Source: Sharpea porci | GTDB lineage: Bacteria > Bacillota_I > Bacilli_A > Erysipelotrichales > Coprobacillaceae | Direction of reading: 5' to 3' | Assembly (NCBI RefSeq): GCF_009695655.1 | Contig: NZ_VUNM01000005.1 | Location: 1-24,000 of the forward strand | DNA: 24,000 bases | Part shown: piece after piece, positions 2,080 through 22,408 of the stretch | How the letters are laid out: each line of letters starts with the position of its first letter | Numbering within the stretch: position 1 is the first letter of the stretch | Translations under genes and position numbers: made by a program | Notes under the pieces: model-generated | Databases searched by the model: none | Told to the model about the DNA's origin: nothing | The model's input: only the letters and a program-made list of their open reading frames with translations

Positions 2080-4533
2080 TTAATCAATAATTGTTCTCTT
2101 CAGCATTTCACAAATACCAGAAACGCCATCTCCTGGCTTCCAGAAAGTGACATAGCCTTCAAGAGAACTTGCTTTTTCAACCAATGATGGCACACTTTCA
2201 TCAACAACAATCCAACATTTATACTGACTATTTTTTGCATCCTGAATCATATTACTAGCTGCACTATGCCCATCTAAAGCAAGAAGCAAGGATGGTCGGC
2301 GCTTAAAGATTTCAAAAGCAAAGCTCTTATAAACACCTAGTGGGGATGATTCAATGGATATGCGTACACCAACATCTTCCTTTTTGATACGTTCTGCTTC
2401 CTTACTTGTCAGCATCTTAGGGACAAAGCTATAGACTTCAAATCCTTTGGCATGATCCAAAAGATATTTCTCATAACCGGACATGCTTGAACCAATCACA
2501 AAGAAGACCTCTTCTTTATTCACACTTTCAATGAGTTCATCAAGAAGATGACATTCATCTTCTTTTAGTTCTGTTTGATGATTGACATTATTAAATGATC
2601 CACCAACAATCACAATAGGAATCTTATGAAGTGGCAATGGATGAATCTTTGTGACAAGAAAGAGAGAAGCTTCAATATTACGGCTTGTAGGCATCAATGT
2701 AATCATATGATGTTTCTCTTTTTCAAGACGTTCATTGTAATAGTTGACCACGCTTTGTGTGCCAAGTGCTTCCTTAAAGTCTTTCATCTTCTCATGAAAT
2801 TCTTGCATAGCTGTATGACAAATCGTCTGCTCAACATCATGCATTTTCTTCATTTCATCAAAGCTTAAGTCAAGCATCCGTTCAAGAGACAACTGCTCAT
2901 CAATGGAATTCGTCCCATAAAGCGCACCACCATCTGTTCCCTGAACGCAGCGAATATCATTTCTTAAATAGTCTTTTAAGGGATGATGCGTTAATTCTGT
3001 CAGGTTGTTAAGTCTTACATTGGATGTAATTTGGAATTCAAGAGCTATTCGATAATCTTTAAGCTTTTCTAAAAGTAGCTTGCCTTTTTTACTATCGAGA
3101 GCAGGCGTATAGAGACCATGACCTAAGCGTACATGGGGAAAGAACTGACCGGGTGCGAGCGCCTTTTCTACTTCAAGCACGCTATTGAGGACATTATCTG
3201 GCAGGGAGTCATTCTCTCCGGCATGGAATCTGATGACAAAGCTAGGAATATCTTTCGCTATAGCGACAATCGCCTGTATAACTGAAGAGAGCTCACGAAT
3301 ATCATTCATTTCTTCACCCACGAAATCACTTCCAGCAACATAGGGATCATTAGCTACAGCTTTTAATACTTGCAGATTTTCATTAAAGACATTCTGACTT
3401 ACCCGATCTTTGACAATCGTCAAAGGAATACGTCTAAAAGCACATAGAAAACGTAATGTTACGCCTGTTTCCTTTGTGATTGCCGGCATGACTTCATGGA
3501 TTTGTGCAAGGGTATGGGCTGCTTCACTTGCCTTGACAAGCGCTGTATCCGATATTTCTGCATAAGTCACTCCAACCTTCTGATAACTTCTTGCAACAAA
3601 AAGTAATTGATCTTGATAAAGAGTATTATAACGATAGACAGGATTTCGACGATCTAAGTCCATTTGTTTTAATGCATTAACAATATCTTCATCGTCAATA
3701 TCTTCAATATGTTCTAAGGCAATAGGATCAAGTACACTTGTCCCTTTGGTAAAGACATAACGATAAATATAGACTTTCTCAAGATTTGTGAAAACAGCCT
3801 GACCATCTTTCATAACAGCGAGTGAAGTTCTGATCTTGGCTATATTCTCTGAAGCATGTTCAAGATTTTCCAGAATGAGACTTGCGAAATTGAGATAGGT
3901 ATGATCATCAATCTTACGATCTAAGTATTTTCCCTTTAATTGACTATAAGCAAATGATCGAGCAATAGTCTGTCTTCGATTTTCTAATAGTGCTCTTTGT
4001 GTAGGGGTGATATTGAGTTGTAGTTTCTTAATATAATAATAAGGATAACGTAACTGATGATGAATAGCTAAGGCAATAAGAATATCGGGCGAAAGATTCG
4101 CAGAACGATGGGTATGAAGATCACTATGGAACTTCACTTCTTTACGAATATAAGTCTTTACAAGTGTCTTCTCAATATCAAGCTTATAGTCCTTAGTCTG
4201 ACTCATCAGAGTTTTCGCAATGGCTGGCACATAGGCCTTACGCTCTATGCGTCCATCAGGATAAATATTTGCCACCTTTGTATTATGGAAACGTAAAATA
4301 TAGACCATTTCATTATCACCATCATAAAAACAAGGCACATCACCTTTAATAATTTTATATCCATAGTCATCATAACGAATTTCTAGCTCACAGACCTTTG
4401 CGAGATTCGTTATTAAATTACCTGTTTGATGATGTGGCGAAGTAATGACATAGGATAAATCATCCCCCTGCATATCAAGTGTAACAATGATATCCTTTTC
4501 TTTATCAAGATAAAACTTTCCAAAATAGGCCAT
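2080..4533 (-). CDS. Multidomain protein with three parts: an unknown N-terminal domain (~aa 1-125), an adenosine/AMP-deaminase-like amidohydrolase domain (~aa 130-560), and a C-terminal Rossmann-like SLOG/LOG/DprA-like domain (~aa 635-817).
   Basis: 817 aa. The ordered deaminase-fold motif series is: FHSDLHTH (HxH, aa 136-142), VAGSDFVGEE, FHAGEN (aa 436-441), RLGHG (aa 469-473), EFQITSNV, and VQGTDGG (aa 530-536). The C-terminus alternates beta strands and glycine-rich loops: IPIVIVGGSF, VFFVIGSSMSGYEKYL, LLLALDGHSAASNMIQDA, CWIVVD. RBS GAGGAG. Confidence 0.75.
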   Translation of the reverse strand: MAYFGKFYLDKEKDIIVTLDMQGDDLSYVITSPHHQTGNLITNLAKVCELEIRYDDYGYKIIKGDVPCFYDGDNEMVYILRFHNTKVANIYPDGRIERKAYVPAIAKTLMSQTKDYKLDIEKTLVKTYIRKEVKFHSDLHTHRSANLSPDILIALAIHHQLRYPYYYIKKLQLNITPTQRALLENRRQTIARSFAYSQLKGKYLDRKIDDHTYLNFASLILENLEHASENIAKIRTSLAVMKDGQAVFTNLEKVYIYRYVFTKGTSVLDPIALEHIEDIDDEDIVNALKQMDLDRRNPVYRYNTLYQDQLLFVARSYQKVGVTYAEISDTALVKASEAAHTLAQIHEVMPAITKETGVTLRFLCAFRRIPLTIVKDRVSQNVFNENLQVLKAVANDPYVAGSDFVGEEMNDIRELSSVIQAIVAIAKDIPSFVIRFHAGENDSLPDNVLNSVLEVEKALAPGQFFPHVRLGHGLYTPALDSKKGKLLLEKLKDYRIALEFQITSNVRLNNLTELTHHPLKDYLRNDIRCVQGTDGGALYGTNSIDEQLSLERMLDLSFDEMKKMHDVEQTICHTAMQEFHEKMKDFKEALGTQSVVNYYNERLEKEKHHMITLMPTSRNIEASLFLVTKIHPLPLHKIPIVIVGGSFNNVNHQTELKEDECHLLDELIESVNKEEVFFVIGSSMSGYEKYLLDHAKGFEVYSFVPKMLTSKEAERIKKEDVGVRISIESSPLGVYKSFAFEIFKRRPSLLLALDGHSAASNMIQDAKNSQYKCWIVVDESVPSLVEKASSLEGYVTFWKPGDGVSGICEMLKRTIID

Positions 4534-6967: not shown

Positions 6968-7678
6968 ATGAATCTAAAAGCTATGCGCAGAACAACCATC
7001 ATTCTGCTTATTCTCTCAATTATTATTTATCTCATCCAGATTCTCATCTTTAATGATCCACGGACGACCTTCTTCTATATTCTGCAAGATTTAGCCTTTA
7101 TGCCTATTACGATTGCCTTTGCGACACTCATGGTTGGTGAAGTGCTCAATTGGCGTGAAAAGAATGAACGCAAGGAAAAGACACGTATGTTGACAAGTAC
7201 ATTCTTTACAGAAATAGGTGCTATCCTTGCCCATTATACACTTTCTATGACCCAAGAGGATGATTTTTTGCATCTTGTGGCAAGAAATGGCGGCCATATT
7301 GACAACATGACAGAAGATGAAATCATCCAAAAACTTGAACATCATAAAATCAAAGTTAAGCTCAATAAAGAAGGCTATGAAAAAGCACGTAATCTCATCC
7401 TTTCTAACCAGACAAACCTTCTTGTCATCAGTTCCAACCCCTTAATACTTGACCACGAATATTTTACGGAAATGCTTTGGGGTGTTTTTCATTTAATTGA
7501 TGAATTCCGTTTGCGAGGAGAATGGGAGGCGCTCTCTCCAACTGATATTGCTCATCTTAATGCGGACTTTGCCAAGGTCTTACGCTTAATGCTGATTAAT
7601 TGGATTGGTAATAGTGAATATCTCGCTAAAAACTATCCTGCTTTCTATAATGTTGCCTTCAATAAACTTGATTATTAA
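6968..7678 (+). CDS. Hypothetical membrane-anchored protein: two N-terminal TM helices plus a helical cytoplasmic domain
   Basis: 236 aa. RBS GTGAGG. Divergent from the CDF gene. I recognise no family motif. Confidence 0.6.
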   Translation: MNLKAMRRTTIILLILSIIIYLIQILIFNDPRTTFFYILQDLAFMPITIAFATLMVGEVLNWREKNERKEKTRMLTSTFFTEIGAILAHYTLSMTQEDDFLHLVARNGGHIDNMTEDEIIQKLEHHKIKVKLNKEGYEKARNLILSNQTNLLVISSNPLILDHEYFTEMLWGVFHLIDEFRLRGEWEALSPTDIAHLNADFAKVLRLMLINWIGNSEYLAKNYPAFYNVAFNKLDY

Positions 7679-11495: not shown

Positions 11496-13733
11496 TTATA
11501 GGAATTGATGATGGGCCCAATGATGAATGCGTTTTTTCATTCCTTCAATATCAAGAACACCGTAGGCAAAAGATTTGCGGACAAGTTCATCAGGAAGATA
11601 CTGATCATATTTTTCAAAGACGGGCATTTCTTTTTCATACAGTAAATCAAGAGGATCAAAGTCCTTCTGGGCTTCTTCTTCAAGAATGTTAAAGAATGTT
11701 TCTTCATCTGCATCCATCGTAAACATGATGTAGTAAGGGCGCAGGCTATTGAGGCCCTTCAGACGCAATCTGTTGCGGCACTTTATTTTCAAGAAACGCT
11801 CCATCGCAAGAAAACCATAGCTGCCAAGCCAAGGGAAAAGCACCCACATCTTACCACCTATATTAACAAGAGGATGATGGATGATGTCGGCATTCTTAAA
11901 AGTATGCCGTGCTTCTTTTAAACGATAGATGGCTTGATTCATAAGATAGGGATAACTTTTGTCACTACTTAAAACATCATACATTTTCTCTAAAATACGC
12001 GTATGAATATCACCAGGAACATCACCAAAATAAGCCGGAATATTGCCCTTGACAAGATTGCAATAAACCTCACGGCGATGATGATCCACTTCTTCTACAA
12101 CCCATACTCTTCCCGCAATCGCAATCTTATCACCAATTGGTGGTGGCTTGACAATCGTCCCTAAGACTTCGCTTCCAGCATGAACTGTATATTCAAGATT
12201 TTCCGCAAAGACGGCAAAGAATTTATGATTGTTGACAACTCGTTCACCAGCAATGCCGACTATCAGTCCACCATTCTCTGTTTGATTAATATGATCGATA
12301 GAAAGCAAATGTCTTAAAAGAATCCGATAGTCATCCTGGGAAACATTATGGAAGATGGATAGTGTCAGCACTCTTGAAGCAAGTTCTGCTGCACTCATCT
12401 CTCCAAGAGAAGCGAGAATGCTCATTGTTTGATGATAAAGCAAGGAATAAGGGATTTTGTTTTTGATTGGCGGTTCAACAAAGCGCTCTTCAATATAGAG
12501 CTGGATGAGGGCAATGCCCTGAATAAGGTACCAAGGGATGCTTTCGGGTAAAAGAGCTCTTGCTTCAGGATGATCTTCACGCATCACAAACCACATTTCA
12601 CTTGGTGCCCCTCTTCTGCCTGTTCTGCCCATTCTTTGCAGGAAGCTCGAGACTGTAAAGGGGGCATCTATCTGAAAAGCACGTTCAAGCTTACCAATAT
12701 CAATACCTAATTCAAGTGTTGCGGTTGCACAGATGGACATAGAAGAATGTTCATCCTTCATGTCTTCTTCAGCACTTTCCCGATAGCTTGAAGAGAGATT
12801 GCCATGATGAATGAGAAAACGGTCAGGTTCATGATTAGCTTCACAATATTGTCTTAAATGTTGGCAGACACTTTCACATTCCTCACGACTATTCGTAAAA
12901 ATTAAACACTTTTTCCCTCTGGTATGTTCAAAGATATAGCCCATTCCTGGATCAGATGCAAAGGGGGCTTTGTCAGTTGGTGCATCAAGAGCATGAACTT
13001 CCTCCACCATTTCTTCCTCTCCTGCCTGGGGAGCCTGATTAAAGAAGTGCTCCATCGATAGACGCCATACTTCCTTGCCACTATCAAATTTTGGAATAAT
13101 ACTGCCTCGATGACTCCCTACATTTAAAAAATCAGCTGCCATTTTCATATCACCAATCGTGGCCGATAAGCCAATACGACGGGGATCACAACCTGCTTCC
13201 TGACAAAGACGTTCGATTAAGCAGAATGTCTGACCTCCTCGATCCTGTCTTAAAAACGCATGTAATTCATCAATGACAATAAAACGCAAATCATGGAAAA
13301 GTGAAGGTATTTCCATATGTTTTCTTAGCATCAAAGCTTCTAGTGATTCAGGGGTAATCTGTAAGATACCTTGAGGTTTCTTCAGCAGTTTTCTTTTTGC
13401 CGTGGCGGGGGCATCGCCATGCCATCTGGTAACTGTAATATCGCTCTCTTCACATATTTCCTCTAATCGTTCATACTGATCATTGATTAATGCTTTGAGG
13501 GGAGCAATATAGAGAACACCTACGGAAGAGGGAGGATCTTCTTCAAGAAGAGTGAGAATAGGAAAGAAAGCTGCTTCTGTTTTACCCGATGCTGTCGAAG
13601 CGCAAATCAGGACATTCTTATCTGTATGAAAGATAGCATCTCCTGCTCCATTCTGGACAGAACGTAAAGAGTGCCAATTATGGCGATAAATATAATTCTG
13701 AATGAAGGGAGCATAACGATCAAAGATATTCAT
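11496..13733 (-). CDS. sngC: SF2 DExH-box helicase (Lhr-like core plus ~350-aa C-terminal extension); third gene of a Shango-type triad
   Basis: 745 aa. Motif I ASTASGKTEA, motif II VIDELH, motif III SAT, motif VI QRMGRTGRRG. Its RBS (TAGGAG) overlaps the stop codon of the upstream ATPase gene. Confidence 0.75.
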   Translation of the reverse strand: MNIFDRYAPFIQNYIYRHNWHSLRSVQNGAGDAIFHTDKNVLICASTASGKTEAAFFPILTLLEEDPPSSVGVLYIAPLKALINDQYERLEEICEESDITVTRWHGDAPATAKRKLLKKPQGILQITPESLEALMLRKHMEIPSLFHDLRFIVIDELHAFLRQDRGGQTFCLIERLCQEAGCDPRRIGLSATIGDMKMAADFLNVGSHRGSIIPKFDSGKEVWRLSMEHFFNQAPQAGEEEMVEEVHALDAPTDKAPFASDPGMGYIFEHTRGKKCLIFTNSREECESVCQHLRQYCEANHEPDRFLIHHGNLSSSYRESAEEDMKDEHSSMSICATATLELGIDIGKLERAFQIDAPFTVSSFLQRMGRTGRRGAPSEMWFVMREDHPEARALLPESIPWYLIQGIALIQLYIEERFVEPPIKNKIPYSLLYHQTMSILASLGEMSAAELASRVLTLSIFHNVSQDDYRILLRHLLSIDHINQTENGGLIVGIAGERVVNNHKFFAVFAENLEYTVHAGSEVLGTIVKPPPIGDKIAIAGRVWVVEEVDHHRREVYCNLVKGNIPAYFGDVPGDIHTRILEKMYDVLSSDKSYPYLMNQAIYRLKEARHTFKNADIIHHPLVNIGGKMWVLFPWLGSYGFLAMERFLKIKCRNRLRLKGLNSLRPYYIMFTMDADEETFFNILEEEAQKDFDPLDLLYEKEMPVFEKYDQYLPDELVRKSFAYGVLDIEGMKKRIHHWAHHQFL

Positions 13734-13742
13734 AATGAACTC

Positions 13743-15089
13743 CTAAATTGTAAACTCGGCAAAGCCATCATTGGTTTTATTAGAAAGGACATCACTTTCA
13801 TGATAATTGAATTCTTCACTATTTAAGAGATCTTTCACTTTCATATCTGGATGTTGATAGAGAATATCAAGAAGTTCAATAAAATCTCTAATGACTTCAC
13901 GAGGAGTAATATTGCTGCTTGCACCAATACGCTGATATTCAATTTGAATAAAGAGAGCAATATCATCCGTTGTCACTTTCTTGTCATAACGATACATTGT
14001 CGCATGAATATCGGCAAGCTTTTCACATAATACAAGCATTTCTTCAGGATTCAAAGGCTCAAGATGAATAACGGGGGCAAGTAAGTCACGGACGCCTTCC
14101 TTGGCAAACTTCCCTTCAGCAAGTCGAGAACGCAATGCCTCATAGCTATAGACACCACGACGTTTGTCTTCTAATGCCTGTGGCGTTGCACCCATAATAA
14201 TGCCAAGATGCTTTGCTTTCCCTTGAAGTGTATCATTATACATCATCAAGATCTTTTCATAATTGTATTGACGGGTAATGGCATTAGGAATCTTATAGAT
14301 ATTGACAAGTTCATCAATCATAATCATCATCCCAGCATAACCAGCCAGCGTGAAAAAAGACGCAAAAAGCTTAATATATTCATACCAATCATCATCCGTA
14401 ATAATGATATTGACACCCAGTTCATTTTTAGCTTCTCTTTTAAGGCTATATTCACCCCTGAACCACTTCAAAACAAGTGCCTTGGTTTCATCATCACCTT
14501 GTAAATATGCATGATAGTAACGTGAAAGCAAGGATGCAAACTCGAAACCATGAACAAGTTCGCTCATTTGGCTTGTGACTTCATAAATTTTCTGATCGAC
14601 TAGACGACTTAACGCTATGTCACCAACCTTTAAACCTGACTGTGTCACAGCTTCACTTTGAATCTGAGAAATCCAGCGATCAAGCACCAAAGCCAAAGCT
14701 CCACCTTCAGGCTTTGTTTTCGTGGAAAGATTAGCAATCAGCTCACGATAAGTCGCTAATCCCTGTCCTCTTGTCCCTTGCAAACGTCTTTCTGGAGACA
14801 AATCTGCATCAGCAACAATAAAGCCCTGATCCATCACATAATTACGAATACTTTGTATCAGAAAACTCTTTCCTGAGCCATAGCGTCCCACGATAAAACG
14901 GAAACTTGCGCCACCATCCTTAATCATTTCAACATCATGTAATAACGCTTCTATTTCATTCTTTCTCCCCACCGTAATATAGGGCAGGCCAATTCTAGGA
15001 ACCACCCCACCCTTTAGGGAATTCATGACAATCGAAGCGATACGTTTAGGTATTTTTCTATTTACGTCCATAAAGTAATTCTTCAACAT
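13743..15089 (-). CDS. sngB: DUF2791-type P-loop ATPase (BREX BrxC/BrxD-like ATP-binding domain); second gene of a Shango-type triad
   Basis: 448 aa. N-terminal GGVVPRIGLPYITVGRKNEIEAL, Walker A GRYGSGKS, Walker B MMIMIDELV. The start is uncertain: ATG at 15089 or at 15071. Either one overlaps the end of the upstream gene. Confidence 0.7.
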   Translation of the reverse strand: MLKNYFMDVNRKIPKRIASIVMNSLKGGVVPRIGLPYITVGRKNEIEALLHDVEMIKDGGASFRFIVGRYGSGKSFLIQSIRNYVMDQGFIVADADLSPERRLQGTRGQGLATYRELIANLSTKTKPEGGALALVLDRWISQIQSEAVTQSGLKVGDIALSRLVDQKIYEVTSQMSELVHGFEFASLLSRYYHAYLQGDDETKALVLKWFRGEYSLKREAKNELGVNIIITDDDWYEYIKLFASFFTLAGYAGMMIMIDELVNIYKIPNAITRQYNYEKILMMYNDTLQGKAKHLGIIMGATPQALEDKRRGVYSYEALRSRLAEGKFAKEGVRDLLAPVIHLEPLNPEEMLVLCEKLADIHATMYRYDKKVTTDDIALFIQIEYQRIGASSNITPREVIRDFIELLDILYQHPDMKVKDLLNSEEFNYHESDVLSNKTNDGFAEFTI

Positions 15090-16863
15090 CCTCTCTATAA
15101 TCTTCTATCAATACAAGACGATTATCTTCTATTTCAACAATATTATCACCTATTTCATCATAATAAGCTTCATTCATCTCATCAGCAACTACTTCAATAA
15201 AGAGATGATGTTCTTTTAAGAATGAAGTTACATCTTCATTCTTGAGAAGCTTTTTGATTATAACTTCAGTCATCTGATCCTGATCATCTATTTCTTTTTC
15301 AACAACTGGTTTGACCTCCACTTCCTTCTCTTCTTCTGTCAATAAGCTTTCTCTTGTCAAAGCTGCTTCATAACGTATCTTTTGCAGGCTGGCAAGATTG
15401 AAATCCATTTGTTTATGTTTTTCTTCATAGTCTTTGATTGCCATTTCTTCATAAGATTCCATAAAATCAAAAGCATCATCGACTTTAAGCTTTCTACCTA
15501 CTTCAAAATAGGCACGAAGAAAACGGTCTATTTCTCTGATCAAGCCTTTGATGAATTTAGAATCGCATTTTTCAATTTGAAAAGCTTTGATATTCCAGTT
15601 GTTATATTTATCTAAATGATAAATGCGAATAGGATCAATATCATAAGTGAGAATGTCCTTTTCTTTATTTCTTTCATATAGGGCATTGGAAACTGGATAA
15701 AAGCTTGTCGTGCGCTGTCCTTTGAAGATAAAACTGAAGAGTGTTTTCTTCTTTATGCGATAATCTTTAAAAGCATTCTTGATGATCATTCCAGCTATTT
15801 CCTTTGTCTTTTCAGGTTCTTTTTTATAGACTGGCGATTTATAAAAAGAACGATCAGAAAAAGCCATGATACTTTCAAAGATTTCTGAAGGTGTGTGTTC
15901 TTTGACTTTCTTTAAAGTCATCAAATTTTGATCAAGCTTTAACATGCCGTCAGGAAAATAGGCTTTTACGCGTTCAATAGGAAAATGCATATCTAAGGCA
16001 AGTTCAAAAATCCACTCTTCAACCCTATCTTCCATCCGTTGATCATGAGCTATTGGTCTTACAAAACGCTCTACGAACTCCTCGAGCTTGTCAAAACGCT
16101 CTTGTACATCTTTACAGCCTATTCCATTTAATAGCTCATAGACATAAAGATAACTAAGGGAAGTGGCTATGGGAAGATATTCTCCCTCCCTGACTTTCTT
16201 ACGCCATGAAAAATAACCTCTTAATATTTCTGGTGGCATATCATAATAACAAGGAAAATAACTCTTATAGTCTTCGCTCCAGGGATAATCATCTTCATAG
16301 TCAACCATAAACTTTCCCTGTCTTATAAAATTAGGCACCCATTCATAATAAGCATTACTTTTCGCTAAGGCATACATTTCTCTTAACTTCTCAGGAATCT
16401 CTTTAGTAGTGGTTTTGGGATTTTGAGGATGAGCAGCATGAATATGTTTTCGTCTTCTGATTTCTTTTTTAGGGATAGCTGTTTCATGATAGCTAGAATC
16501 ATCATGATCATCTTCAAGGATAATTAGATGATCATCATAAATAAGGAAGACTTGGTCAATTAATTGAAAAAGCAATCGTGTATCATGAATTTTATTCATA
16601 TCAAGAGTGAGAAACTTACCAATGCTTTCCATCTTGACATCTTTTATAGCCTGCTGCAGAGATAGATCCAATCCCAATTCATCTAACAGAAGATTACAAT
16701 AAGCCTTCTGACTACTTGTTTCCTGATCAAAGAAAGTGATGAAATAAATCATGCATTTCTTCGTTTTCTTATCATTAACTAAATAAAGATTCTGTTGTAT
16801 TTCAAGATTACAAGAGCTTGCATATTTATTTTTAATATAATCTAGTGCCTCATTAATCAACAT
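15058..16863 (-). CDS. sngA: TerB_N / TerB_C domain protein with an extra ~125-aa N-terminal domain; first gene of a Shango-type triad
   Basis: 601 aa. TerB_N-like signature YFSWRKKVREGEYLPIATSLSYLYVYELLNGIG (aa 217-249). Acidic C-terminal region (LLTEEEKEVEV..., DYREDVEELL) resembling TerB_C. RBS AAGGAAGGG. Confidence 0.65.
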   Translation of the reverse strand: MLINEALDYIKNKYASSCNLEIQQNLYLVNDKKTKKCMIYFITFFDQETSSQKAYCNLLLDELGLDLSLQQAIKDVKMESIGKFLTLDMNKIHDTRLLFQLIDQVFLIYDDHLIILEDDHDDSSYHETAIPKKEIRRRKHIHAAHPQNPKTTTKEIPEKLREMYALAKSNAYYEWVPNFIRQGKFMVDYEDDYPWSEDYKSYFPCYYDMPPEILRGYFSWRKKVREGEYLPIATSLSYLYVYELLNGIGCKDVQERFDKLEEFVERFVRPIAHDQRMEDRVEEWIFELALDMHFPIERVKAYFPDGMLKLDQNLMTLKKVKEHTPSEIFESIMAFSDRSFYKSPVYKKEPEKTKEIAGMIIKNAFKDYRIKKKTLFSFIFKGQRTTSFYPVSNALYERNKEKDILTYDIDPIRIYHLDKYNNWNIKAFQIEKCDSKFIKGLIREIDRFLRAYFEVGRKLKVDDAFDFMESYEEMAIKDYEEKHKQMDFNLASLQKIRYEAALTRESLLTEEEKEVEVKPVVEKEIDDQDQMTEVIIKKLLKNEDVTSFLKEHHLFIEVVADEMNEAYYDEIGDNIVEIEDNRLVLIEDYREDVEELLYGRK

Positions 16864-16875
16864 GTTGACCCTTCC

Positions 16876-17439
16876 TTATTGTTCTTGTTGGATTTTGGTT
16901 TCGGTCTCCTTTAAAATCTCATCACGCAATTTACTTAGCCAGGAAGAAAATTCCACAACATCAAAGGCATAATGTCGTTGCAAATCATATTCATGATCTT
17001 CCCATGAATCAATGGGCGCTTCATTATGTTGGATGACGGCTTCAAGCTTATCGAGGGCTTTGAAGATTTTGGCTTCTTTGCTTTGACATGCTTCCATTTC
17101 TTGATAAAGCGCATGCATATTTTGCGATAATTGATCAGGAAGTGTATTAAGAAATACATCAAGTAGCTTAGCTTCCTGTTGACGATCTTCATCGGTCTTT
17201 AAGAAGACAGGAATATCACCAGTAAAACATTCACCAAGATCATGAATCACACACATACGCATGACCTTATTTATATCAACATCGCTAAACGTCTCTTCGA
17301 GAAGTAAAGCCATCATGGCTATCCGCCAGCTATGTTCAGCTACACTCTCTATGCGGTTATTTTTTGTGACACAATGTCTTGGTGTGTCTTTGAGCTCATT
17401 AATAATATGAACGATTTCTAAATAATCTTTAGGTGTCAT
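16876..17439 (-). CDS. HD-domain phosphohydrolase, YfbR-like (5'-deoxynucleotidase family)
   Basis: 187 aa. ESVAEHSWRIAMMALLL and VIHDLGECFTGDIP motifs (H...HD...D metal ligands). Its ATG overlaps the upstream stop (ATGA). Its own stop is 12 nt from the sngA-like start. Confidence 0.85.
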   Translation of the reverse strand: MTPKDYLEIVHIINELKDTPRHCVTKNNRIESVAEHSWRIAMMALLLEETFSDVDINKVMRMCVIHDLGECFTGDIPVFLKTDEDRQQEAKLLDVFLNTLPDQLSQNMHALYQEMEACQSKEAKIFKALDKLEAVIQHNEAPIDSWEDHEYDLQRHYAFDVVEFSSWLSKLRDEILKETETKIQQEQ

Positions 17440-17723
17440 GCACGTTGTTGGATGACAACATGAATACTGTCACCTTCACCTTTCTTTAGCTTTGTACGAA
17501 TGCTTTTTAACACACCAATAATATAACAGATGGTGCCATCATCATGCTTTAAGCCCATGTTGACAATACTGCCATCATAGGCGATACCATCAAAGGTTGC
17601 ATGAACTTTCACTCTTCCTTTTTGAAATTCTTCTCTAATATCCCAAGGAAATTCTACATAGGCACCACCCTTTTCTGGGATTTCATGAATGATGCCATCA
17701 TATTCATAGACTTTATTGTTCAT
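17436..17723 (-). CDS. DUF1905 family protein
   Basis: 95 aa. GGAYVEFPWDIREEF..GRVKVHATFDGIAYDGSIVNMG..GDSIHVVI matches the DUF1905 pattern. RBS AAGAGG. Confidence 0.8.
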   Translation of the reverse strand: MNNKVYEYDGIIHEIPEKGGAYVEFPWDIREEFQKGRVKVHATFDGIAYDGSIVNMGLKHDDGTICYIIGVLKSIRTKLKKGEGDSIHVVIQQRA

Positions 17724-20869: not shown

Positions 20870-22009
20870 CTAGGCTGCCCCGGCAAGCAGCCGCAGGCCT
20901 TCATTCAGGATATTGATGGCTGCGTTCTGGTCACGGCCTATCGTGAGTCCGCAGTCTCATGTCATCTTGCGGATAGACAAATCCTTCATCTCGGGATGCA
21001 ATGTACCGCAGCAATGACATATCTGTGATGATGGATACCACTTATCTACCTTAACAAGATACTTGTTCCTGTCGGACAGCTTATACTCAAGCATAGACAG
21101 GAACATGCCGTATCCGTTATCCAGGGTCGCTTTGCCGTTGCCGAACCCGCGATTCGCCATAGACTTCATGTCTAGAGATTCCACGCATACAACATCATAC
21201 CGATTGGCTATCTCAGCAGATATTTTATGCAGGTTGTCCAGACGCTGATTTGATATGTGTCTATGAATTTTATTTACTTTACGGAGCTGCTTGATATAGT
21301 TATTGGATTTATCTTCATGCTTTTTATAGCCTTGCATGCGGGACAGCCTGCGCTGTGCCTTGGCAAGCCTGTCATGGCTTTCACGGTAGTACTTATGATT
21401 AGTACCAACATTACCGTTGCTGTCTACATATAAGCCGTCAGATGCATAATCCAGTCCAATGGCATTGGCTTTATCCGCTATATAAGTATTTTCCACTTTA
21501 TCAAATTCAAAAAGCACAGAAATATAATACTTGCCATCTGATTCCTGAGATACAGTAGCCGACTTGATAATCCAGCTGCTGTCAGGGATACGATGGATGA
21601 CAGCTTTGACCTTGCCAATCTTAGGAAGCCTGATGTACTTGTTGTCTGTAATCGCAACTGTCCCTTTCTGATTGTTTGTCGTGTAGGACCTGCGGCTGTG
21701 CTTTGCAGACTTGAACTTAGGAAATCCGTTTTTCTTCTTGCGAGATCTGTCAAATGTGTTGCGAAATGCTGCCTGCAGGTTCATCTGTACGTTCGCAAGG
21801 GCAAGACTGTCTACATCCCTGAGATAAGGATATTCATCCTTATACCGAGCAGGCGTTACATCAGGAAACTTGCCAGTTGCTTTATAGCCTTCAATCTTAT
21901 CGGAAAGCATGAGATTATAGACCTTGCGGCAGCAGCCAAAGGTCTTAGAGAACATAATGTTTTGTTCAGCTGTAGGATATACTCTGTACTTAATTGCCTT
22001 GTTTGCCAT
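20870..22009 (-). pseudogene. tnpB: IS200/IS605-family TnpB (OrfB, RuvC-like RNA-guided nuclease) interrupted by an in-frame TGA
   Basis: RuvC-I AIGLDYA; RuvC-II VVCVESLDMKSM; zinc-finger first half CHCCG. A TGA falls at 20957-20959. The same frame then continues DCGLTIGRDQNAAINILNEGLRLLAGAA* (RuvC-III) to a TAG at 20870-20872. Strong RBS GGGAGGGAAGG. Confidence 0.8.
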
Positions 22010-22257
22010 CCTTCCCTCCCTGTGACTCTATATATTGCTTAATGATATCTGCTGTGGCCCCGCCTGCGGTCAGCAGGCAGAAGCTCTGTGACCAGAACAT
22101 CTCTTTCCATAAGGATTTGCGTATTTCAGGAAATTCCTTCTTTATGATACGGCTGCTCGCTGATTTGTAGGCATTAATAATCCTTCCTGATACATCTGGC
22201 CGTATCGTAGCCCATGTTCTTTGTATGGGCCATGTACCTGACCGTGTCCTGAGCCAT
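21990..22257 (-). pseudogene. tnpA: IS200-type Y1 (HUH) transposase TnpA remnant with an internal deletion/frameshift
   Basis: The ATG at 22257 follows RBS GGAAGGGAG and encodes MAQDTVRYMAHTKN (IS200 TnpA N-terminal AHTK(W)N pattern). That frame then stops after 27 codons. The C-terminal two-fifths (IRPDVSGRIINAYKSASSRIIKKEFPEIRKSLWKEMFWSQSFCLLTAGGATADIIKQYIESQ, including the catalytic Tyr) is in another frame. The CKYHIV...HxH(U) block in between is absent. Confidence 0.7.
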
Positions 22258-22286
22258 GGCTGTCGTCTCCCTTCCTGTACAGCAAT

Positions 22287-22315
22287 ATTATACCATGAGC
22301 ATTGCTCACCGTCCA
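22287..22315 (-). promoter_or_regulatory. Candidate promoter internal to the IS left end, driving tnpA/tnpB
   Basis: On the minus strand, TGGACG (plus 22310-22315), a 17-nt spacer, then TGG-TATAAT (extended -10; TATAAT is plus 22287-22292). It sits ~30 nt upstream of the tnpA remnant ATG. Confidence 0.5.
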
Positions 22316-22351
22316 CCTTGTGCAGGCGATATGAAAGGCAGGTGCCGGCCT

Positions 22352-22375
22352 TGCTCATGACTGAAGTCATGAGCA
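22352..22375. repeat. Perfect palindrome in the IS left end (stem-loop of unknown role)
   Basis: T-GCTCATGACT-ga-AGTCATGAGC-A forms an 11-bp stem with a 2-nt centre. Confidence 0.6.
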
Positions 22376-22408
22376 TGCAGCGGGCAGGTTGTCAGCAAAA
22401 CGCCGTGT

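Follow-up and report, generated by a model that had tools for sequence, protein, structure and literature searches.

The stretch of DNA analysed here, a window of 24,000 nucleotides (nt) of the Sharpea porci contig NZ_VUNM01000005.1 to which all coordinates refer, carries three genes of the Shango anti-phage type, sngA, sngB and sngC. They lie next to each other on one strand in the order A-B-C, which is the gene arrangement of Shango (Table 1). A first-pass annotation, made from the sequence alone, had described three co-directional open reading frames (ORFs), and we found them on the minus strand at exactly the coordinates it gave. Its middle frame of 448 residues exists, but the start of sngB is most likely the second ATG, as gene calls on every related contig give the resulting 442-residue form, which is also that of the NCBI record (exact match to WP_154514606.1). 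With this start, the overlap of sngA with sngB shrinks from 32 nt to 14 nt. We retain the 448-residue numbering for positions in SngB. The gap between sngB and sngC measures 9 nt and contains a GGAG ahead of the sngC ATG.

Table 1. Features of the Shango locus and of other parts of the window.
Feature	Coordinates	Strand	Description and evidence
sngA	15058..16863	(-)	601 aa; YjbR-like domain, TerB_N and TerB_C; PADLOC SngA match over residues 137-596
sngB	13743..15071	(-)	BrxD-like AAA+ ATPase; 442 aa from the second ATG; longest ORF from 15089, 448 aa
sngC	11496..13733	(-)	745 aa; DExH superfamily 2 (SF2) helicase of the Lhr/BrxHI type; PADLOC SngC match over residues 3-734
SngA N-terminal domain, residues 1-111	16531..16863	(-)	predicted divergent YjbR/MmcQ-like double-wing fold; profile and AlphaFold2 (AF2) evidence
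SngA disordered linker, residues 112-153	16405..16530	(-)	predicted local distance difference test (pLDDT) below 50 throughout
SngA hypervariable, putatively recombinant patch, residues 55-125	16489..16701	(-)	comparison with the Sharpea contigs L010 and L018
HD_3/YfbR-like 5'-deoxynucleotidase	16876-17439	(-)	Pfam
DUF1905	17436-17723	(-)	Pfam
Promoter-like site, extended -10	17772-17744	(-)	consensus scan only
Terminator-like hairpin ending the ars-like operon	17803-17780	(-)	consensus scan only
IS200/IS605 element	20957-22376	(-)	350-aa TnpB
817-aa protein	2080-4533	(-)	adenosine-deaminase domain at about residues 311-580
236-aa ORF	6968-7678	(+)	

Sharpea porci records (MST88665-88678, WP_1545145xx/146xx) exist for nine of the ten window proteins we looked up, and the three Shango proteins and the HD and DUF1905 proteins encoded upstream of them are exact matches to MST88674-88678. 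The EF-P ORF as read (188 residues, GTG start) clusters with Sharpea EF-P proteins of 185 residues. The triad is present in S. azabuensis too. S. porci is a gut bacterium, and its genus is placed in the family Erysipelotrichaceae. Some public records label the exact SngB protein as 'biotin carboxylase', which is likely a propagated mis-annotation of a PF10923 ATPase. The Sharpea records give these genes generic names and could be re-labelled as Shango.

To assign the three proteins, we compared them with Pfam, with the PADLOC defence profiles and with the NCBIfam equivalog cut-offs. SngA matched Pfam TerB_N (E = 6.6e-18, 65.6 bits with a cut-off of 25, residues 152-290) and TerB_C (E = 1.1e-8, 35.8 bits with a cut-off of 26.3, residues 474-594), and the PADLOC SngA profile with E = 6.5e-53 over profile positions 63-526 of 528 (88% coverage). 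These matches bear out the TerB_N-like signature and the acidic TerB_C-like tail that the first-pass annotation had described: the signature YFSWRKKVREGEYLPIATSLSYLYVYELLNGIG (YFSWR...NGIG) occupies residues 217-249, and 31% of the final 101 residues are aspartate or glutamate. SngB covers positions 1-413 of the 414 in PF10923 (BrxC_BrxD, formerly DUF2791; E = 8.7e-169), so that both of the first two proteins have significant matches to the families proposed for them; its best PADLOC match is SngB (4.5e-190), followed by BrxD (2e-45). In SngC, Pfam detects DEAD (2.2e-30) and Helicase_C (3.8e-19), and the PADLOC SngC profile (3.8e-280, 929.7 bits) precedes BrxHI (1.2e-120, 401.9 bits), which also matches over the full length. 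All three proteins thus match the Shango-specific profiles best, with a significance far above chance. Their motifs were each located in the sequence and are intact in both enzymes, with Walker A (GRYGSGKS, residues 68-75) and Walker B (MMIMIDELV, 254-262) in SngB, and motifs I (ASTASGKTEA, 45-54), II (the DExH box VIDELH, 153-158), III (SAT, 190-192) and VI (QRMGRTGRRG, 366-375) in SngC.

The three genes of Shango, for a TerB-like protein, an ATPase and a helicase, have been validated experimentally as a system from E. coli and P. aeruginosa PA14 (PMC10250203; bioRxiv 10.1101/2022.05.11.491447), and these sources support the anti-phage activity that the first-pass annotation had ascribed to it. 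The Sharpea locus resembles the described systems (Millman et al. 2022; Johnson et al. 2023) in its three protein families, in their gene order and in the lack of a nuclease or toxin domain, none of which was recognizable to Pfam in SngA, SngB or SngC. Nor did we find a transmembrane segment in any of the three, the maximum hydropathy over 19 residues being at most 1.5 in each. The TerB domain proper (PF05099) has no match in SngA at E <= 1, and profile scans of the window ORFs found no ter genes (terZABCDE); on both counts, the locus does not qualify as a tellurite-resistance Ter cluster.

The gene order is maintained in distant relatives. A scan of one genome per species returned at least 584 relatives of SngA, and we analysed the best 80 loci, which come from Clostridia, Bacteroidales, Chloroflexi, Planctomycetes, Spirochaetes, Kiritimatiellia and other groups, mostly as metagenome-assembled genomes from rumen or gut. 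A complete A-B-C set on one strand was present in 63 of the 80 loci, and 61 of these 63 were contiguous in a visual reading of the gaps; a stricter scripted window accepted 53, with the other eight flagged due to start-codon choice. Order and strand are kept where SngA is only 27-35% identical, including three metagenomic loci (L006-L008) with SngA identities of 28-32%. Several loci depart from the pattern: in L057 and L058 an insert of 2.4-3.2 kb separates sngB from sngC, in L088 about 2 kb separates sngA from sngB, the sngA of L044 is an orphan, followed by 5.6 kb without sngB or sngC, and in L064 sngB lies upstream on the opposite strand and sngC has no match.

One member of the clade resides on a 344-kb plasmid of Clostridium estertheticum, where its SngB is 76% identical and the locus adjoins a relaxase gene. 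This plasmid copy, together with the scatter of the clade over unrelated phyla at about 75% identity, points to horizontal transfer. Homologues of SngB occur on 696 plasmids in the collection we searched, although some of these may be BrxD of BREX systems. SngB had no match in the GenBank phage collection and SngA no relatives in IMG/VR.

The first-pass annotation had further noted an extra N-terminal domain of about 125 residues as a feature of this version of the TerB protein. The domain is real, but it is not peculiar to the Sharpea copy, since about 40 of the 59 SngA relatives that we aligned have a domain of about 115 residues ahead of TerB_N. In the AF2 model of full-length SngA (pLDDT 82.7), a folded domain and the disordered linker (Table 1) are followed by a large, mostly helical core (residues 154-482) and a C-terminal helix-helix-helix-hairpin-helix unit (527-598). 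The linker lies where SngA is least conserved in a comparison with L005, a Sharpea-like contig whose SngA is 79% identical (identities of 62% at residues 101-150 and 56% at 151-200). Beyond its matches to the YjbR family, Foldseek found no PDB counterpart of the core.

A profile of the N-terminal domains of SngA relatives matches PSPTO_3016 (2KFP/3H9X), a YjbR protein (PF04237), with E = 1.4e-12, and weak Pfam YjbR matches occur in seven of the 59 relatives (best E = 0.001). Sharpea SngA has no Pfam YjbR match at E <= 1, and its N-terminal domain is only about 17% identical to those of other SngA proteins; hhalign nonetheless aligns it with them end to end (probability 63%, E = 7e-5). A separate AF2 model of the domain (pLDDT 87, predicted template modelling score 0.80) shows a double-wing α/β fold and has 3H9X as its top PDB match (template modelling (TM) scores 0.64/0.65, probability 1.00), a fold match to be read with the caveat that the input alignment of the model includes YjbR-like relatives. 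With the full-length model, E. coli YjbR (2FKI) was the second match, followed by the DNA-binding domain of phage T4 MotA (MotA-CTD), the TM scores to the YjbR family being about 0.62-0.65. The N-terminal domain of SngA is thus, as predicted by these models, a divergent YjbR/MmcQ double-wing fold, which resembles the family (PF04237; 2FKI, 3H9X/2KFP) in fold and differs from it by the lack of a Pfam match and of the conserved motifs. Charge does not separate the Sharpea version of the domain from other SngA. The fusion of YjbR and TerB is a common, previously reported module and not new: MmcQ/YjbR fused to TerB was noted by Bell et al. (PMC7641849), and an in-silico study describes a Lactobacillus protein composed of domains of the YjbR-like, TerB-N and TerB-C types (bioRxiv 10.1101/2021.07.23.453527).

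Of the three proteins, SngA evolves by far the fastest. Between Sharpea and 40 other loci, the median identity is 32% for SngA, compared to 75.5% for SngB and 73.8% for SngC; pairwise among the other loci, the medians are 51%, 83% and 83%, respectively. The same contrast is seen at close range. Between the window and L005, SngB (97%), SngC (94%) and ACR3 (97%) exceed the 79% identity of SngA, and the ratio of nonsynonymous to synonymous substitution rates (dN/dS) is 0.18 for SngA but 0.03, 0.04 and 0.02 for SngB, SngC and ACR3. Two Sharpea contigs with an alternative sngA allele, L010 and L018, are 100% identical to the window in ACR3, DUF1905, SngB and EamA and 99.7-99.9% identical in SngC, whereas SngA is only 88.4% identical. 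The difference peaks in a patch covering residues 55-125, where 31 of 71 residues differ and nucleotide identity falls to 70% (positions 16700-16500). The dS in the patch is 0.79, compared to about 0.05-0.25 elsewhere in sngA, and its dN/dS is 0.44. The high dS of the patch and its near-identical flanks indicate imported mosaic sequence and not local point mutation, and hence that the patch is recombinant. Judged by these alignments, SngA, chiefly in the second half of its N-terminal domain, is the diversifying part of Shango. In the strains with the alternative sngA allele, the HD gene diverges as well (95% identity).

Taken together, the profile matches, the synteny and the fold of the N-terminal domain are best explained by an intact, chromosomal Shango system (SngA-SngB-SngC) of a sub-type with an N-terminal YjbR/MmcQ-like domain on SngA, and we hold this assignment with high confidence. 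Several points weigh against it. The experimentally validated systems are proteobacterial (E. coli, P. aeruginosa) and none is from Sharpea's clade, whereas the copy described here has a Firmicute host and is known from sequence. Its N-terminal domain, which lies outside the part matched by the PADLOC profile, lacks the motifs conserved in the YjbR-like domains of other SngA proteins (KW..PGFSVL..TGKW..MRQWD), including all four tryptophans, and DNA binding by this domain is uncertain. The dN/dS values remain below 1 and hence do not prove positive selection. All 15 Sharpea contigs examined, one of them with an SngA only 79% identical, have the cassette fixed at a single site, with HD on one side and EamA on the other, a constancy less characteristic of mobile defence islands. 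As we found no Shango mechanism or structure in the literature searched, up to mid-2026, or among PDB entries, the order of events in the mechanism proposed below derives from domain homology. Apart from the fast evolution of SngA, the Sharpea locus is an ordinary member of the already described Shango family, to which it brings no new component, and standard defence-finder tools should detect it.

Downstream of the cassette lie genes for an EamA transporter, EF-P (efp) and a short-chain dehydrogenase/reductase (SDR), and no terminator was found after sngC in a terminator scan. Upstream of sngA follow the gene of an HD_3/YfbR-like 5'-deoxynucleotidase, separated by 12 nt, then DUF1905, overlapping the HD gene by 4 nt, and then an ars-like operon (ArsP permease, ArsR, ACR3, thioredoxin-like protein). 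The first-pass annotation had placed the cassette next to an ars operon and an insertion sequence (IS) element. Both are present, but DUF1905 and HD intervene before the former and the IS200/IS605 element is about 4 kb away from sngA. The accessory character it ascribed to this context was not established, as all 15 Sharpea contigs carry the cassette at the one site. There was no empty site among them, sister genera not having been checked, and the GC content of the locus does not deviate clearly. The window gave no hits in scans for Rfam families or tRNAs.

From the consensus scans, the transcription unit that runs into sngA probably starts at the promoter-like site upstream of DUF1905, and DUF1905 and HD may be co-transcribed with sngABC as a unit of five genes. 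As conserved components of Shango, however, we reject them, since they adjoin sngA in none of the 80 other loci and do so only in Sharpea. In L005, a gene for a 261-residue dCTP-deaminase-like protein (PF22769, 2.1e-10; positions 1808-2593 of that contig), which is not found in the window, lies between the thioredoxin-like gene and DUF1905; a small site of variation may exist directly upstream of the Shango unit.

Three further features of the window concern genes outside this unit. The TnpB of the IS200/IS605 element combines OrfB_IS605 with a Cas12f-like TNB domain, and in an overlapping ORF of 128 residues the match to the Y1 transposase profile is confined to the C-terminal third of that profile, so that TnpA is probably degenerate; related Sharpea contigs have a different TnpB (416 residues) or a contig break at this position. 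The adenosine-deaminase domain of the 817-residue protein (Pfam A_deaminase, 5e-13) is its sole recognizable part and resembles that of the CRISPR-associated CARF_ADA profile (PADLOC, 1.9e-8); the parts on either side, about 310 residues N-terminal and 240 C-terminal to it, are without annotation, and the protein scores below every NCBIfam adenosine-deaminase cut-off. The 236-residue ORF has no Pfam match at E <= 0.001, while related contigs carry precomputed matches to MJ1433_N/MJ1433_C.

We considered several other explanations of the locus. The TerB-type protein could reside at the membrane, sense perturbation of the envelope and trigger growth arrest, in the manner of membrane surveillance with abortive infection. 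Millman et al. speculated along these lines for Shango, TerB having been reported as membrane-associated (bioRxiv 10.1101/2022.05.11.491447), and the idea was repeated for DinB, the TerB protein of Dionysus. SngA, however, contains TerB_N and TerB_C only, without the TerB domain proper, and neither it nor SngB or SngC has a transmembrane-like segment. SngA is partnered by an AAA+ ATPase of the DNA type and by an Lhr-like helicase, and its N-terminal domain has a fold of the DNA-binding type. For the Sharpea system, the membrane idea is therefore weakly supported and we give it little credence.

A different possibility is that the functional unit comprises five genes, DUF1905-HD-sngABC, to which the YfbR-like 5'-deoxynucleotidase would contribute an arm acting by nucleotide depletion. 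The position of the terminator-like hairpin and the promoter-like site just upstream of DUF1905, the tight spacing of the genes and the inclusion of HD in the segment that diverges along with sngA in L010 and L018 would fit such a unit. Both signals are consensus matches only, though, and neither DUF1905 nor the HD protein has a PADLOC match. In L005, the HD protein is shorter (167 residues) and its gene is 73 nt away from sngA, and the association with sngA is missing from L006-L008 just as it is from the 80 other loci. We consider a five-gene unit unlikely, with a slim chance of being correct.

It is similarly unlikely, and in our estimation a slender prospect, that in Sharpea the triad is a domesticated housekeeping module for DNA repair or replication restart, with an Lhr-like helicase and its loader, instead of an active phage defence. 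The constant chromosomal site in Sharpea, close to efp and other core genes, would be expected of such a module, as would the strong purifying selection on SngB and SngC and a GC content without strong deviation, and among solved structures SngC is nearest to the repair helicases Lhr and YprA/MrfA. Against this, the Shango-specific profiles score best by far, with 930 bits for SngC compared to 196 bits for TIGR04121 (cut-off 850) and 175 bits for PRK13767 (cut-off 849). The phyletic scatter and the plasmid copy speak for horizontal transfer, and an SngA that is hypervariable and recombines would be more usual at a host-parasite interface. That SngB and SngC are what is left of a type 2 BREX (Pgl) system is unlikely to the point of being negligible. 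In spite of their matches to BrxD (NCBIfam BREX_BrxD, 157 bits) and BrxHI, the former stays below its equivalog cut-off (350 bits), and the Shango profiles have far higher scores than the BREX profiles. No ORF of at least 80 residues in the 24-kb window encodes PglX, PglZ, BrxC or PglW, and in the relatives a TerB_N/TerB_C gene always precedes the ATPase-helicase pair.

Returning to Shango, the homology of its motor proteins allows a mechanism to be outlined. In the PADLOC comparison, the homology of SngB to BrxD and of SngC to BrxHI, a pair that belongs to type 2 BREX, extends from end to end of the proteins, and the two pairs are likewise tightly linked. BrxD is an ATPase of the ORC/Cdc6-type AAA+ group, proposed to load or activate BrxHI, which has a winged helix, a β-barrel and an Lhr-CTD-like DNA-binding domain (PMC12839542), CTD denoting the C-terminal domain. 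SngC, BrxHI, DruE and DpdJ form one defence-associated clade of SF2 helicases (PMC12278908). The Sharpea locus differs from type 2 BREX in that it has no methyltransferase, PglZ, BrxC or PglW and carries a TerB_N/TerB_C protein in place of the BREX core; without this core, no epigenetic discrimination between self and non-self is evident. Among solved structures, the SngC motor domains come closest to Lhr of M. smegmatis (5V9X; 9.4e-29, residues 33-374), followed by ASCC3 and YprA. The match to Lhr is limited to the helicase core, however, the NCBIfam cut-offs for Lhr-type proteins are widely missed and the genomic partners differ. No solved structure was found for SngB or for the core of SngA.

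On this basis, SngA could act as a variable adaptor or sensor, whose N-terminal double-wing domain and TerB_N/TerB_C core would recognize a feature of phage DNA or a phage protein. The next step would be the recruitment or licensing of SngB, the ORC/Cdc6-type AAA+ ATPase, by SngA. SngB in turn would load SngC, the Lhr-like DNA helicase, onto phage DNA or activate it there, and ATP-driven unwinding or translocation may then disrupt the replication or transcription of the phage with no dedicated nuclease involved. We offer this scheme as a whole only tentatively, as one possible way in which an SngA adaptor and an SngB-SngC motor might cooperate.

The variability of SngA across phyla, together with the patch that distinguishes otherwise identical strains, marks SngA, and above all this patch, as the place to seek the trigger or specificity determinant of the system. 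A more far-reaching proposal, which we regard as rather doubtful, is that residues 55-125 are the phage-specificity determinant of the YjbR-bearing sub-type, exchanged between strains by recombination, and that in Sharpea this part of the domain was repurposed from DNA binding to the recognition of a phage protein. The quantified hypervariability of SngA and its mosaic patch are the sole added value of the Sharpea locus, and their novelty is modest. As Shango is a validated defence, the contrast between SngA (30-50% identity across phyla) and SngB and SngC (about 75-83%), along with the patch, could nevertheless guide experiments. If the patch does determine specificity, swaps of SngA alleles would provide a direct handle on the trigger of Shango.

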